This document shows, in pieces, positions 22,643 to 40,815 of a stretch of DNA of 64,000 nucleotides. Under the pieces are notes generated by a model. The model had not been told where the DNA came from. It worked only from the letters and a program-made list of their open reading frames with translations, and ran no database searches. Positions within the stretch are counted from its first letter, which is position 1. Each line of letters begins with the position of its first letter. The translations under genes were made by a program, and so were the position numbers. Where the stretch lies: NCBI GenBank assembly GCA_038046765.1, contig JBBSVN010000005.1, forward strand, positions 32,001 through 96,000, in the 5' to 3' direction. The stretch is from Candidatus Micrarchaeota archaeon. Its GTDB lineage: Archaea; Micrarchaeota; Micrarchaeia; Anstonellales; Bilamarchaeaceae.

Positions 22643-24022
22643 TCACACATTCCAGTATCTTTCCATTTCCCATGCGCTTATGCTTTTTTGGCTGTCCTTG
22701 AACTCTTGCAATTTCGAGTCTAAATAATCTCCAAGAAGTTCAGTTGGAATAACTCCCTTAATAAATTTAGGATCAGTTTCCAGTGCTTCGACTGCTTCGT
22801 ATAACGTGTTTGGCAACTTATTCCATTTCCTTTTCTTTGCCTCTTCTTCATTTTCGCTTAATGGGTCACCTGGATCTATTTTATTCTTAATTCCATCAAT
22901 TCCGGCAGCGATTATTGCTGAATAAGCCAAGTATGGATTTACTGAAGGATCGGCATTGTTAAACACAACTCGCTTTACTTCCTTTGCATTTTTCTTTGTA
23001 AATGGTGCGAGTACTAATGCCTTTCTGTTATCTTTGCTCCAGCCAACAACTTTTTTATCCATTGTCATTCTTTTATAGGAATTTGTTGTCGGGTTGGTAA
23101 ATAAACAAAGTGCTGCTGCGTGTTCTAAAATTCCGCCAATATAATATCTTCCAGCTTGGCTTAGTTGGGAATACTCATCAGTTCCATCATAAAACATGTT
23201 ACTATCTGCTGTTTTCCATAAGCTCTGGTGAATTGCAAGAGAACTTCCTTTTTCTCCTTTAACTGGGTATGGCATAAATGTTGCGCCCGCGTTAACTGCG
23301 TTAGCGAGGTTTCTTACAACAAATTTTAATGTCGAGATCGCATCCGAAGCTGTTTTCATAGTATACTCTTGTATATCTATATTTTGTTGCCCTGTTGGTG
23401 ATCTACCATGCCTGTGTCCATCAACAAAAAATCCAAATGCATCTTCCATTGTTTCAGCAATCTGGTTTCGTGCAGCGTATAAACTATCATAAGGTTGCGA
23501 TACAAATGCGCCATTTCTTACTCCAGATAATGGCGATGGGTTCCAAGAAGCTTCCCTAGTATCTACTATTGTTCCAGCTCCTCTTTCTGAGGTTGTTCTA
23601 TCTGTAGTTACTGTTTCAAAAATATAAAACTCTAAACTTGCACCTATCTTCGCGCTTTTTATTCCGATTGCGCTTAAGTTTGTCTCGACTCGTTCGCTAA
23701 CATATCTACAATCCTTGGGGTATCTCTCTGTATTGGGGTTCGTTACAACATCACATAATAATCTTATTGAACTAGGCTCCCATGGCAATCTTGCAACTGT
23801 GTTTGCATCGGGTAAAAGTGCCAGTTCCCCCTGTTCGCTTCTTCCAAAAACGTCGTACAAATCTGCGGCTGCAATTCCTTTACTAAACATTTGTTCATCA
23901 ACATCCCGGTTCGAGATTGTTGTTTTGTGCATTAATCCGTTAACATCAAAAAACTGTAAGTCGACCCATCGTATTTCGTTTGTTGCTATATACTTTAATA
24001 CTTCATCAACAGAGGTCATCAT
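22643..24022 (-). CDS. Glutamine synthetase type I homologue with degenerate active site
   Basis: WVDLQFFD, LLPD, ATFMPYP, YYIGGILEHA, NSYKR, DPSVNPYLA; start reassigned to ATG after AGGTGA. Confidence 0.88.
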   Translation of the reverse strand: MMTSVDEVLKYIATNEIRWVDLQFFDVNGLMHKTTISNRDVDEQMFSKGIAAADLYDVFGRSEQGELALLPDANTVARLPWEPSSIRLLCDVVTNPNTERYPKDCRYVSERVETNLSAIGIKSAKIGASLEFYIFETVTTDRTTSERGAGTIVDTREASWNPSPLSGVRNGAFVSQPYDSLYAARNQIAETMEDAFGFFVDGHRHGRSPTGQQNIDIQEYTMKTASDAISTLKFVVRNLANAVNAGATFMPYPVKGEKGSSLAIHQSLWKTADSNMFYDGTDEYSQLSQAGRYYIGGILEHAAALCLFTNPTTNSYKRMTMDKKVVGWSKDNRKALVLAPFTKKNAKEVKRVVFNNADPSVNPYLAYSAIIAAGIDGIKNKIDPGDPLSENEEEAKKRKWNKLPNTLYEAVEALETDPKFIKGVIPTELLGDYLDSKLQEFKDSQKSISAWEMERYWNV

Positions 24023-24083
24023 TATCACCTGATTAGTAGTGAGTGTTAGACGATTACATTGTTTAAATATGTTTGTGTCACAA

Positions 24084-24816
24084 TTATTTCCCAAACCTTC
24101 TCATTCTGTTTGCGTATTCTTTTAATGCATCATCAAAATCTGCCTTTGTAAAATCCGGCCAGAGCTTTTTAGAAAAATATAATTCACTGTAACTAGTTTG
24201 CCAAGACATTAAACCGCTTAATCTTTCTTCGCCCGAAGTTCGGATAACTAAATCTGGATGTGGCAAGCTTGCTGTGTATAAATTCTCCTCAATTATTTTT
24301 TCATCTACTTTTTTTATTCCCTTAGAAATGATCTGATTTACTGCATCAACTATCTCCTGTCGTCCACCGTAAGCTAGTAAAAGATTTAGCTGATATTCAG
24401 TATTTTGTTTGCTTAATTCTTCAGCTTTTTTTATCATTTCTTGTATCTTGACTGGAAACAAACCAAGTCTTCCAAAGAATCGCACGCGAACATTATATTT
24501 ACCCTTTTCATCGCTCATTATCGCTTTTTTAAGATTATCAGTAAATAGTTCAAAAAGAGTTGAAACTTCATTTTCATCGCGATCAAAGTTTTCTGTACTA
24601 AAGCCCCACATTGTAAGCATTTTAACTTCTGATTCTTTGCACCATTTTAAAACTTCCCCAATGTGCCCGATGCCTGTTGCGTATCCTTCTTTTATGCTTT
24701 TTTTATTTTCTTTAGCCCATCTCCGGTTTATGGCTATATAGTTTTTTATTCTATAAAGAACTAATTTTTCCATCCGGGATAATGGCTATATGTTTTGGTA
24801 CTTCTTTTTCATCCAT
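24084..24816 (-). CDS. uppS: Polyprenyl (undecaprenyl) diphosphate synthase, split: join(24768..24816, 24084..24727)
   Basis: Exon 1 MDEKEVPKHIAIIPDG + exon 2 NRRWAKE...FSTENF...YGGRQE...IRTSGEERLS...RRFG. Confidence 0.92.
24728..24767 (-). other. Candidate 40-nt BHB/BHL-type mRNA intron in uppS
   Basis: Outer helix CCGG/CCGG, central helix AUGG/CCAU, AAA bulges; cutting after the 2nd bulge nucleotide gives GAU GGA AAC CGG (D-G-N-R). Confidence 0.85.
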
Positions 24817-25774
24817 GTTTCTTTAACCCCCTATCTATTAATTTTAATGAATTAAAATTATCAATAAATTTGAGTATGTCTGCCTGATTTTGTATCACTA
24901 ATATACTGGCTGTTGTAATTTTTCCATTTCTTATTCCATTATCCTTGTAAATATGCGGTCTTTCAATTCCCATTTTTATTAATATTTCTAAACATTCCTC
25001 TAATATTCTTTTGTTGTGTTGCTTTATGGATATTCTTCTTACTTTGTTTTTAACTATGCTTACACTACCATCTGCATCAAAAAACCCAGCTAAAAAGTAT
25101 TTTTGTAATTCTAAGTTATTTAATATCTTCGGGACATTTGTTTTTTCCTTTTTATTTCCTGTTGGAATTTGGCAAATTTTAGTTAGAAAAAGGTGGATTA
25201 CTTTTGATCGTCCGATCAATCTGTAAAAATTATGCTCCTTAAATAAGGGCGGTTTGTAAGCAAATAACTTGATAAATATCTCTTGTAGATATTCTAAATG
25301 ATGTTTATCAATTGTTGTAATTCGAATCTCTGCGTTATACTTTGATCCATTTCCTATCGTATCATTGGGGTTAGCTAAATGTCCATCACCCATAATATAT
25401 CCTAACAAATAAGCAAGTGACGAATCAATTTGTTTAGGTAAAATGTATTTTTTTGTATTCGTTCCACCTAAATATGTTATTTTTTTGTATAATTCTAGTT
25501 CAGTAATCTGGAGTATTTCTGCTAATTTCAATAATTCCGAAATTGGTATTCCTACATCTCTTTTCGCATCCCCTAACCAGTTTATTATATTCTTGTATTT
25601 GTTGTTACTCATTTTAGCTATTTCTTTGTAAGTATTTTTTCCGAACTTAGTTTTTAAATAATTTTTTATGCTATAAGCTCGTACTTCGTCGTTTCCCTTT
25701 TCCTTAGTTATTTTAAGGTCTTGAATATAACTTCCAAGCTCTATAACTGGGTTCTTGTCCACCATATCAATCAA
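24809..25774 (-). CDS. Free-standing LAGLIDADG homing-endonuclease-like protein with N-terminal HTH
   Basis: YLLGYIMGDG and FLAGFFDADG motifs; no intein splicing termini; AT-rich. Confidence 0.85.
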   Translation of the reverse strand: MIDMVDKNPVIELGSYIQDLKITKEKGNDEVRAYSIKNYLKTKFGKNTYKEIAKMSNNKYKNIINWLGDAKRDVGIPISELLKLAEILQITELELYKKITYLGGTNTKKYILPKQIDSSLAYLLGYIMGDGHLANPNDTIGNGSKYNAEIRITTIDKHHLEYLQEIFIKLFAYKPPLFKEHNFYRLIGRSKVIHLFLTKICQIPTGNKKEKTNVPKILNNLELQKYFLAGFFDADGSVSIVKNKVRRISIKQHNKRILEECLEILIKMGIERPHIYKDNGIRNGKITTASILVIQNQADILKFIDNFNSLKLIDRGLKKHG

Positions 25775-36779: not shown

Positions 36780-39700
36780 TTAGTCCACTTTCTTTTCATG
36801 TGCGTTTGCTGGGGGTTTTTCTTCCTGTGCATTTACTTCTGTTCCATTTGTTTTTTCCTTCGGTACATTTGCTTGGTCGGTTTCTCCTGCATTCACCGTA
36901 TTTACTACGTCTGTTTCTTGCGTCGTATCTGGTTTACTTTCAAATGCGGCAAAGCTAGCGACCTTTTCCCCTTCGTTAAGTTTGATTATCCTAACTCCCA
37001 TCGTGTTCCTGCCGATTATCGAGATTCCATTCGCTCCTACGCGTATTGTCTGGCCTTTGTCAGTTACAACTAAAATCTCATCGTTTTCATTTACGCATTT
37101 AGCTCCGCAGACAAAACCATTTCTTTCTTCGGTTTTTATGTTTATTATTCCGCTTCCGCCTCGCCCTTGTAATCGGTATTCTTCAATCTCGGTTCGTTTT
37201 CCGTATCCGTTTTCAGTTATTGTCAATAATACGGAAGTATTGCAAACAGTCATGCTGACAACTTCGTCATCATCGTCCATCCTAATTCCAATTACCCCTT
37301 GGCCGGTTCGTCCTATTTCGCGTGCATCTTCTTCCATGAATCTTATTGATTGACCTTTTTTAGTTGAAATTAAAACGCTTTGCTTGCCATCGGTTTTAAC
37401 TACATCAACTAGTCCGTCCTTTTCCTTTAATGTAATTGCAATAATTCCGTTTTTTCTTGGATTATTAAAGTTTGCTAGTGAGGTTCTTTTTATTATCCCC
37501 AACTTAGTTGACATCATTAAAAATTCATTTTCATTGAACTTGTCAACAGAAATCCATGAGGTTACCTTTTCATCTTTAAGATCAAGCAAGTTAACTATCG
37601 TTTTTCCTGTTGCATGTCTTGAAACCTCTGGGACTTTATATGATTTCAACCAAAATACTCTTCCTAAATTCGTGAAGCATAACATGTAATTGTGATTTTT
37701 AGTTACAATAACATCGAGTATTGCATCTTCTTCTTTTGTCTCGCCACCAACTCCCTTTCCGCCTCTTCTTTGTACGTGATACTCGTTTAATTTCATTCTT
37801 TTTATGTATCCTCTTCCAGTTATTGCTAGTACAACGTCATCGTTTGGAATAAGCGCTTCGTCATCAATCTCCTCATCGCTATCAAGTATTTCTGTTCTTC
37901 TTGGGTTGTTGTGTTTTTCTTTTATTTCTGCTAATTCTACTTTTATAATTTCTAAAATTTTGTTAATATCTGAAAGAATATCTTTTAATTTTAAAATTTC
38001 TTTCATCAGTTCGCTTAGTTCTTCCTCTATCTTCTTTCTTTCTAATGAAATTAATTTTTGGAGTCTCATATCTAAAATAGCGTTAGCTTGTTTTTCGCTT
38101 AGTTGATAATTATTCATTAATCCAAGTCTTGCTTCCTGAACATCTTTTGATTTTTTTAAGAATGCGACTATTGGTTCAATGTTGTCTAATGCCTTAGTTA
38201 ATCCTTCTAATATGTGTGCTTTATCTGTTGCAACTCTAAGTTCAAATTGGCATCTTCTTGTTACAATTTCTTTTCTAAAATCTACAAATTCACGAATCAT
38301 TTCATATAACGGAAGTACTTTTGGTTGCTTTCCAACAAGTAGTAAATTTATTATTCCAAAACTTGATTGTAAACCCGTATGCGTATAAAGTTGGTTTAGT
38401 GTTACTTCTGGGTTGGCATCTCTTGTTAATTCAACCACTACTTCTATTCCAGTTCGGTCGCTTAAATCATGTACTCCGCGAACTCCTTCGATTACCTTAT
38501 CCCGAACTTTATCTGCAATCGTTTCGATGATACTAGTTTTAGTTACCTGGTATGGAATTTCTTTTATTATTATCGCATTTTTCTTATGGTCTATTTCGCA
38601 TTTTCCTCTTAATTTTATGCTTCCTCTTCCTGTTTTTTGAGCGTTATAAATCCCGTTTCTTCCTAATATTTGTCCGCCAGTTGGAAAATCAGGGCCCAAA
38701 ACATGGCTCATAACCTGTTCTTCATTTGCGCCACTAATGTAAGCCAATATTCCATCAACAATTTCGCCTAGGTTATGCGGTGGCATGTTTGTTGCCATAC
38801 CAACTGCGATTCCAGAACTTCCGTTAATTAATAAGTTTGGAAATTTACTTGGCATTACTGTCGGTTCCTTTAATGTTCCATCAAAATTAGGTACAAAATC
38901 TACTGTTTCTTTTTCTAAATCATTTAGCATTTCTTCAGCAAGTTTTTGTAATCTTACCTCGGTATATCTCATTGAAGCGGGCGGGTCTCCATCAATCGAA
39001 CCAAAATTTCCCTGTCCTTCTACTAAAGTGTATCTCATGCTAAATTCTTGAGCCATTCTTACTAATGACTCGTAAATAGGTGAGTCTCCGTGTGGATGGT
39101 ACTTACCCATACAATTATGAGAAATCATTCCGTTTGCAATAAATTCATGCGAGTTTTCAACTTGAATGTCGTAAGTTTTTTCGATACCCGCGTCCTCTAT
39201 TTTTTCCACTTTTAAGAAATATGTGTCATTGTCTAAAACTTCATTTATGAAATTAGCTAAAGGAGATTTCATTTGATTTAATTTTTCTTGTATCCCCAAA
39301 TCAACAATCTGGGTTCTTCCAAGATTTTTTTCTTTTAAGTCCTTTGAATATCTAATTTTTGTTCCATCAGGGTATTTTATCCCCATTTTGAATTTTTGGT
39401 TATCTGCATCTTGGTACCAGCCACCGCCTAAATGCTTATTACTAAATTCTCCAAATATTATCTTTCCTGCATATGGGATTTGGTCATATTTGCAAACTTT
39501 CATATCTTGTCCTATTTTTTCCTTACCTGCTATTTTTCTTTCATCAAAGAATTCTAACATTTCCGCTAATTCAATTGCAAATCTACTTCTTACTTCAAGT
39601 GAGTGTGCTGGGAAATTTCCCTTAGCCATTCTACCATTTATCATGTGTGCTTCTTTGGGTTCCTGCACATATCTTGTACTAAAAATACCTATATGTTGTA

Positions 39701-40718
39701 AAATAATCTGAATCTGGTCAATCATTTTTTCTGAAACAGAGACATATCTCAAACAGTTTCGTTCGCTATCTATGCTCCCATCTCCATCTATTAATCCGCT
39801 TAATAATGCGTTTATAACTGGTTTTGGTGAAGAAAATATTTGTTTAGGAATAAATTTTGTTTCTGCCAAAGCGTTTTCTAATTCAAATGTTTTTACTAAG
39901 AAGTTGTTTACATCTACTTTATTTACCCTTACTAGATACATCTTATTTAGAAGAATTTGGCCTGTTGTTGTTTCTACCTCATATTCTCTTTCTTCCAATG
40001 TTGCTTCATAATTAAATTCTTCATTTAATATCTCTATTAATTTTTGGATTACTGCAATCGAGTTACTCGAAACCGCGCATCTGTAATCCTTACCGTGATT
40101 ATATCCTTTTTCAACCCAACCATCTGATAATAATTGACCTAAAAGATACGCTATGTTTTCATTTAAGTATACTTTTTTACCTTCAAATTCTCCAAGTAAC
40201 ACATGCTTTTTTATGTTTGGATAAATAGATCTTGAAACGACGTATTGATTTTCTTTTAAATCCTTCGCTTCAATCCAAACAAATTCCATTTTTTCATTCA
40301 ATATCTTGAATTTTTGTGATTTAGTAACTATGTTTGAAATTCCATTTGCAAGTTTGATTTTTATTAATTCTTTTTCAGGCATTTCGTATAGCTCGTTAAC
40401 TTTATTTTCTCCATTTTGAGTGTAAACAATGTCTCCTTTCTCTATTTCTTGTATTGGGATTAATCCCCTTTTAGCTGCAACTAAGGTATCTTTTACAAAA
40501 CATTCCCCAACTACTCTAGCTGATTTTTTAGTTGGTTTACTATGTGTGTTTCCTAGTTCGTGCATTGAAAAAAGTATTCTTCTATGTACTGGTTTTAATC
40601 CATCTCGAATATCGGGAATTGCCCGTCCAACAATTACGCTCATCGAGTAGTTTAAGTAACTTTCTTTTAGGTCTTTTTCAATTGACTGGTTGATGATTAT
40701 TTCGGACATAAATACCAC
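36780..40718 (-). CDS. gyrA: DNA gyrase subunit A containing an intein
   Basis: [23 protein letters not shown], GyrA-box QRRGGKG, beta-pinwheel repeats. Confidence 0.96.
39114..40502 (-). mobile_element. 463-aa intein with LAGLIDADG endonuclease in GyrA
   Basis: [10 protein letters not shown] ... [36 protein letters not shown] and LSGLIDGDG. Confidence 0.95.
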
Positions 40719-40815
40719 TAAATCTATAGTTTAATCGTGTGTTTTTTTATTTATAAAATTAGGCTGTTTTTGCCTTATATATTTATCGCAAAAACGTATT
40801 AAATACCTGACGGTT

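Follow-up and report, generated by a model that had tools for sequence, protein, structure and literature searches.

In the 64,000-nt stretch of DNA from a Candidatus Micrarchaeota archaeon analysed here (the window), the cis-prenyltransferase gene uppS is interrupted by 40 nt in its active-site motif. Judged from the sequence, this insert is very probably a tRNA-type intron that is spliced. We are highly confident that it represents an ORF-less BHB intron in the uppS mRNA, which would be cut by an EndA of the epsilon2 type and joined by RtcB to restore the DGNRRW motif. Its presence is most likely explained by an overlapping gene for a free-standing LAGLIDADG endonuclease.

The interrupted uppS gene and its predicted splicing enzymes

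The 49 nt of exon 1 contain 16 codons that end in IIPDG, and the frame encoding NRRW resumes 40 nt further on and reaches position 24084 (Table 1). Deleting the 40 nt in silico gave an open frame of 230 amino acids in which PDGNRRW is restored. The unspliced frame runs into a TAG stop after 21 codons, and in 63 intronless uppS alleles from the same family PDG is contiguous with NRRW. The best named relatives of the gene are Micrarchaeota records. A sigma-70 promoter scan remained at chance level, with a model that is ill-suited to archaea. At the DNA level, a contig of run X3 covers positions 23777-25287 with zero differences; X3 and the possible source runs come from one study. Run X4, from a different study, has a contig with exon 1 and the complete insert, likewise with zero differences; this contig continues for 3 letters past the insert and leaves the site unbridged.

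Table 1 Features of the uppS region (window positions) and of the rnhB region (positions in the host genome, G000)
Feature	Position	Strand	Remarks
LAGLIDADG endonuclease ORF, free-standing, two motifs	24809..25774	-	321 aa from TTG, 318 aa from ATG 25765
GGGGG run, possible ribosome-binding site	24827..24831	-	10 nt before the uppS ATG, within the endonuclease ORF; putative function
uppS exon 1	24768..24816	-	ATG at 24816; 16 codons + 1 nt; ends in PDG motif
5' strand of the junction, outer (CCGG) and central (AUGG) helices	24770..24777	-	within the Pro-Asp-Gly codons
40-nt relaxed BHB intron of uppS	24728..24767	-	based on the fold and an identical site in 30/93 family genomes
In-frame TAG in the intron (exon-1 frame)	24751..24753	-	intron nt 15-17
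3' strand of the junction	24723..24733	-	central CCAU 24733-24730; AAA bulge 24729-24727; outer CCGG 24726-24723; predicted cut 24728/24727
uppS exon 2, cis-prenyltransferase	24084..24727	-	PF01255, E 2.6e-71; TIGR00055 over cut-off
rnhB intron, 37 nt, BHB-type	G000 C4:132971-133007		splits the first catalytic motif
rnhB and LAGLIDADG region	G000 C4:131880-133600 (L405:371-2097)		

A free minimum-free-energy fold of the junction contained the outer helix CCGG/CCGG, the central helix AUGG/CCAU and the AAA bulge on the 3' strand (-23.3 kcal/mol; z = -4.96), and 0 of 200 shuffled sequences were equally stable. On the 5' side, the fold has a 6x5 internal loop in place of the strict 3-nt bulge of a canonical BHB, and the motif is therefore relaxed rather than strict. 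The BHB/BHL core, consisting of a 4-bp central helix, a 3-nt 3' bulge and an exon-exon outer helix, is present. Strict or near-strict BHB forms occur in relatives, e.g. in G023 and G063, and in free folds of the intron alleles at least 7 of the 8 pairs are formed in 28 out of 30. Taken alone, the A-run in the host genome permits four equivalent 40-nt registers; this ambiguity is resolved by relatives, where inserts starting with T or G and one with AG at its end leave only the register that the BHB rule gives. Cuts after the second bulge base, as predicted by this rule, would restore PDGNRR in all intron alleles.

Both a broad-specificity-type EndA and RtcB are encoded by the host. The EndA of 407 aa matches the ARMAN-2 epsilon2 enzyme 4fz2 (E 2.4e-129), and RtcB is full length. 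The accessible text of PMC12397907 names Tyr236, His251 and Lys282 as catalytic residues of EndA and ties a loop with Tyr160 and Lys161 to BHB and BHL substrates; all five residues were identical in the alignment (numbering counted by hand). Another EndA-like protein (175 aa; L062:1456-1983, on contig C10 of G000) scored below the TIGR00324 cut-off. We found no second uppS across the genome, which is 89.7% complete, so that another copy could be missing from the assembly. No similar copy of the intron was detected elsewhere in this genome (best match 15 nt), and hence no tRNA-intron donor was found.

Distribution of the insert among relatives

A pattern search of 99 family genomes yielded 31 matches, one of which (G072) was not uppS and was dropped. 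Of 93 uppS genes from the family that were parsed, 30 carry the insert and 63 do not. The inserts range from 15 to 114 nt, and 28 of them are distinct with mostly unrelated interiors, but all occupy one identical site. The outer helix consists of four out of four Watson-Crick pairs in all 30 intron alleles (CCGG/CCGG in 15, CCTG/CAGG in 15), compared to a perfect helix in 6 of the 63 intronless alleles. All 9 alleles with exon GAT have intron CCAT, and all 21 with exon GAC have a G opposite; the third base of the Asp codon thus pairs with its intron partner throughout. One or two mismatches occur in the central helix of 12 of the 30 introns. All 28 distinct introns contain a stop in the exon-1 frame (expectation from shuffles, 18.6); in the two remaining frames, stops occur in 13 and 8 introns. 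When the last six intron bases were removed, the counts for the three frames were 28, 8 and 6. As the family genomes are kin and not independent, such counts overstate significance. Exon 2 stays open for 213-220 codons in 29 of the 30 intron alleles and for 187 codons in one at a contig end. By length, 12 inserts are in frame (with a stop), 13 belong to class 2 and 5 to class 1.

Among 401 phylum genomes searched, one clear case outside the family emerged, a 14-nt insert in G296. This genome belongs to another order, and its uppS is closest to that of its own family, i.e. native. A looser pattern matched 17 non-family genomes, of which only G296 showed the junction by eye, and only G296 was translated. 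The insert also occurs in 9 of 80 named loci, which overlap the family set and were not counted again.

To follow the history of the intron, we used a quick single-gene uppS tree (120 rows; G296 left out). On this tree, the intron needs at least 21 changes, 11 of them forced by starred branches. Shuffled presence gave a mean of 26.8 changes and was as low as 21 in 2 of 500 cases, indicating that the intron is weakly clustered; gain and loss are not separable by these counts. Close sister genomes differ both in intron presence and in the synonymous codons at the site. In the sister pair G093/G075, 1 of 6 synonymous codons is shared at the site versus a fraction of 0.78 elsewhere, a pattern that looks more like replacement than precise loss, with selection on the helix as a confounding factor. 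In a comparison aimed at co-conversion of flanking DNA, identity dipped to 0.63-0.77 over the 30 nt before the site in 10 intron/intronless sister pairs versus 0.73-0.93 in 11 intronless pairs; this comparison, too, is confounded by helix selection. In 3 of the 63 intronless alleles the junction sequence is still complete, which is what a recent loss would leave behind.

These results bear on an earlier note on this DNA, which had been made from the sequence alone. Its coordinates of the 40-nt insert, the in-frame TAG and the split motif agree with ours, and the free fold reproduces the helices, the 3' bulge and the looser 5' loop that it had drawn. Its exact exon joint, derived from the cut rule, was upheld by the register of the relatives' inserts. 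The note had also proposed to seek DNA support, a second intact uppS and the presence or absence of the insert in relatives; the two contigs, the single uppS in the incomplete genome and the shared site answer in favor of its reading. That this is an intron of the EndA/RtcB type is strongly supported by the common site in 30 genomes, the compensatory helix changes, the single uppS and the presence of both enzymes. What the note had overlooked is the overlapping LAGLIDADG gene.

Free-standing LAGLIDADG genes at uppS and rnhB

The stop of the endonuclease gene overlaps the uppS start by 8 nt. The gene occupies its own open frame of 323 codons between purP and uppS, outside the 40-nt intron and with no intein or intron setting. 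Its domain match is PF14528, and the acidic residues D130 and D235 of the two LAGLIDADG motifs are invariant in 14 sequences. A predicted structural model (pLDDT 90) has intein and intron homing endonucleases as top matches.

Close homologues are present in 3 of 98 other family genomes (G105, G081 and G089), immediately preceding an intron-bearing uppS in every case. The endonuclease accordingly accompanies 4 of 30 intron-bearing but 0 of 63 intronless uppS genes (Fisher p 0.009; kin not independent), and the four genomes sit on four separate branches of the uppS tree. Among seven metagenome loci, three (L314, L315 and L316) combine a close homologue with a readable uppS, which carries the intron in all three; of the other four, L318 is cut off by the contig edge, L317 falls into a distant clade and two match only remotely. 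Close homologues with readable neighboring DNA thus precede an intron-bearing uppS in seven out of seven cases. In the close homologues P0002, P0007, P0009 and P0010, the C-terminal end reads, in frame, PDG and then residues other than NRRW, and in none of 11 informative cases does a close homologue lie before an intronless uppS. In G105, L314 and L315 (3 of the 7 loci), the endonuclease frame passes through exon 1 and ends at the stop of the intron. The G089 copy has decayed through an internal deletion and a frameshift. Among 13 close homologues from the databases, seven (three of them from loci counted above) carry at their C-terminal end the uppS exon-1 peptide and, after it, residues foreign to UppS, in line with the earlier expectation that gene callers misannotate the uppS N-terminus.

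A profile search of the 401 phylum genomes gave no further close copy, and the viral contigs searched gave distant matches only. Two weak matches in family genomes (34-35% identity) lie elsewhere than uppS. A LAGLIDADG ORF near uppS in G032 was rejected as a counterpart, as it is a distant homologue located downstream on the other strand. One close homologue (P0012; 49%) stems from a record named Aenigmatarchaeota. A distant clade (L317 and P0016-P0028; 32-43% identity) is likewise found next to uppS; the one uppS read there (at L317) has no intron, and the frame-shifted tails of P0017-P0027 suggest an intronless neighbor too. This clade is a candidate for intronless homing and indicates that the endonuclease family can persist without the intron.

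A second pair occurs at rnhB in the same genome, where a 352-aa LAGLIDADG ORF with a C-terminal HTH overlaps the start of the intron-bearing gene. The uppS-linked and rnhB-linked endonucleases have no significant similarity to each other. The rnhB intron pattern was found in 12 of 99 family genomes and had no control match; 11 of the 12 loci contain an in-frame stop and 3 an endonuclease upstream. At the 11 other rnhB-intron loci, both close homologues of the rnhB endonuclease lie before an intron. De novo BHB scans of the genome, together with a junction-peptide comparison with G014, returned uppS only. They required at least 6 Watson-Crick pairs and at least 10 codons in exon 1, and missed the rnhB intron because of these two filters. 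In a homology-first scan (570 G014 and 769 G000 queries), which is blind to introns common to both genomes and to genes absent from G014, rnhB ranked first and nothing else was convincing.

Additional LAGLIDADG frames and inserts were observed in the two genomes. At G000 C1:48438-49290, a third free-standing frame of 208 aa ends about 60 nt from a tRNA-like gene on the other strand. By eye we take this gene to be of the initiator-Met type with at least two inserts; automated intron removal recovered no clean tRNA there. At G014 C1:1194696-1195573, a LAGLIDADG frame of 257 aa extends into the beginning of a tRNA gene with an intron; this tRNA gene reads Ser CGA once 33 nt are removed. The frame at G014 C1:765569-766999 (476 aa) matches LAGLIDADG weakly and is closely followed by a gene without interruption, presumably IF-2. 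ARAGORN reported 12 tRNAs in G000 and 43 in G014, and Rfam 10 over cut-off in G000; tRNAs lacking from the G000 count would be either unassembled or hidden by multiple non-canonical introns. Inserts in the apparent large-subunit rRNA gene of about 135 nt (G000 C15 near 24900) and about 46 nt (G014 near 227300) are each absent from the other genome. Five long G000 frames (902-1687 aa) with LAGLIDADG domains, one at C5:68780-72730 (window 36780-40730) and the others on C4, C7, C10 and C12, are probably intein-bearing genes.

A proposed route of spread and its relation to known systems

Taking splicing and spread together, we consider it probable that the BHB intron in uppS is spliced by EndA and RtcB and has been spread by the adjoining endonuclease through collaborative homing. 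In this mechanism, endonuclease and uppS would be co-transcribed, EndA would cut the message after the second base of each bulge, and RtcB would ligate the exons to restore DGNRRW. Intronless uppS alleles would be cleaved by the endonuclease at or close to the conserved motif, and the donor would then serve as template for repair, so that endonuclease gene and intron, about 40 nt apart, would be copied together. By splitting the recognition site, the intron would protect the donor allele. Later decay and loss of the endonuclease would leave intron-only alleles. The in-frame stop common to all introns may prevent translation of unspliced messages into an insertion-bearing UppS, and in some alleles it doubles as the stop of the endonuclease. 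The change counts, the co-occurrence and the second pair at rnhB count in favor of collaborative homing at uppS; that 26 of the 30 intron-bearing family genomes lack the endonuclease counts against it. We regard it as evenly balanced whether the pairing of free-standing LAGLIDADG genes with ORF-less BHB micro-introns is a general way for protein-spliced introns to enter conserved mRNA and tRNA genes of DPANN archaea and to spread through them. There, the endonuclease would select for an intron at its target and a broad-specificity EndA would make the intron harmless, while in some alleles splicing would remove the endonuclease stop and so tie its expression to the unspliced message.

Alternatively, a spliced intron may have been neither spread nor selected by the endonuclease, but be old and often lost, or gained by RNA-level transposition. 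The endonuclease would then be an intronless-homing element with another target that travels with intron alleles. The many intron alleles without endonuclease, the distant clade before intronless uppS and the junction sequence kept in three intronless alleles would fit this scenario, as would the cbf5 intron, described in the accessible text of PMC2738675 as one gain with later losses. Nevertheless, we consider it rather unlikely, given that none of the 11 informative close homologues precedes an intronless uppS, that the sharp difference between G093 and G075 resembles replacement more than precise loss (with the same confounding by helix selection), and that the endonuclease-intron pairing recurs at rnhB.

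Far less likely still, the insert may not be spliced at all, with uppS being a pseudogene in these host-dependent archaea, starting at the internal ATG 24773, or being read by ribosomal frameshifting or bypass. Micrarchaeota genomes are reduced, and a 229-aa ORF from ATG 24773 does read through the insert in the exon-2 frame. However, this ORF is without the PDG motif, whose Asp we take to be catalytic, and the open exon 2 of the intron alleles argues against a pseudogene. Inserts fall into all three length classes, so that no single frameshift fits, and for bypass there is no matching landing codon before exon 2. The compensatory helix changes, moreover, are hard to explain without selection on RNA structure. 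Finally, although this is a metagenome assembly and no independent study provides a contig that extends 31 letters to both sides of the site, the many distinct inserts at one site and the contigs of two runs that hold the insert without differences make an assembly artefact negligibly probable.

If spliced and spread as proposed, the uppS intron joins two known kinds of element, a BHB mRNA intron, very probably, and a partner in collaborative homing, as we infer from the adjoining gene. As the earlier note had remarked, archaeal mRNA introns are rarely described: in its accessible text, a 2023 review (PMC10485636) lists two archaeal genes whose mRNAs are spliced, cbf5 and HVO_1309, and anticipates that others will follow, and that of PMC13149111 does not mention such introns. 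Our search by title and start of abstract, covering mostly open papers, found neither an uppS intron nor collaborative homing with BHB introns, and a prior description is possible. Together, uppS and rnhB would add coding-region mRNA introns in a different phylum, and the uppS intron is present in about a third of one family's genomes. The adjoining endonuclease bears on the question of how BHB introns that are short and lack an ORF arise and spread. For annotation, such genes will be truncated by gene callers or have their exon 1 joined to the endonuclease.

As far as the accessible parts of the cited papers go, cbf5 of Sulfolobales and Desulfurococcales is similar to uppS in having a short ORF-less intron (16-44 bp) in a catalytic motif, BHB-like junctions and hosts with a broad-specificity EndA (PMC2738675, PMC10485636). 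PMC2738675 points out that a nuclease would not fit into the short cbf5 intron, and considers deletion derivatives. The cbf5 intron differs in gene and phylum, in an (alpha-beta)2 EndA compared to epsilon2 here, and in its mostly vertical inheritance, whereas the uppS intron is very patchy and abutted by a free-standing endonuclease; splicing has been shown for cbf5 and is predicted for uppS. HVO_1309 of Haloferax volcanii also presents an EndA substrate in an mRNA, but in the 5' UTR, whereas the uppS intron breaks the coding frame (PMC7714728, PMC10485636). Archaeal rRNA BHB introns such as those of I-DmoI and I-Tsp061I (PMC2738675) combine BHB splicing with the LAGLIDADG fold; in the I-DmoI type, however, the ORF lies inside an intron of an rRNA, whereas at uppS it lies outside an intron of an mRNA. 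Collaborative homing is known from phage group I introns (PMC3984707, PMC10448857), where, as at uppS, a free-standing endonuclease sits beside a conserved gene and an ORF-less intron marks the presumed target. The phage introns are group I ribozymes, whereas uppS would combine a protein-spliced BHB micro-intron with a LAGLIDADG enzyme of presumed cleavage activity on a cellular archaeal chromosome, and, unlike in the phage pairs, 3 of 7 endonuclease ORFs at the uppS locus run through exon 1 and use the stop of the intron.
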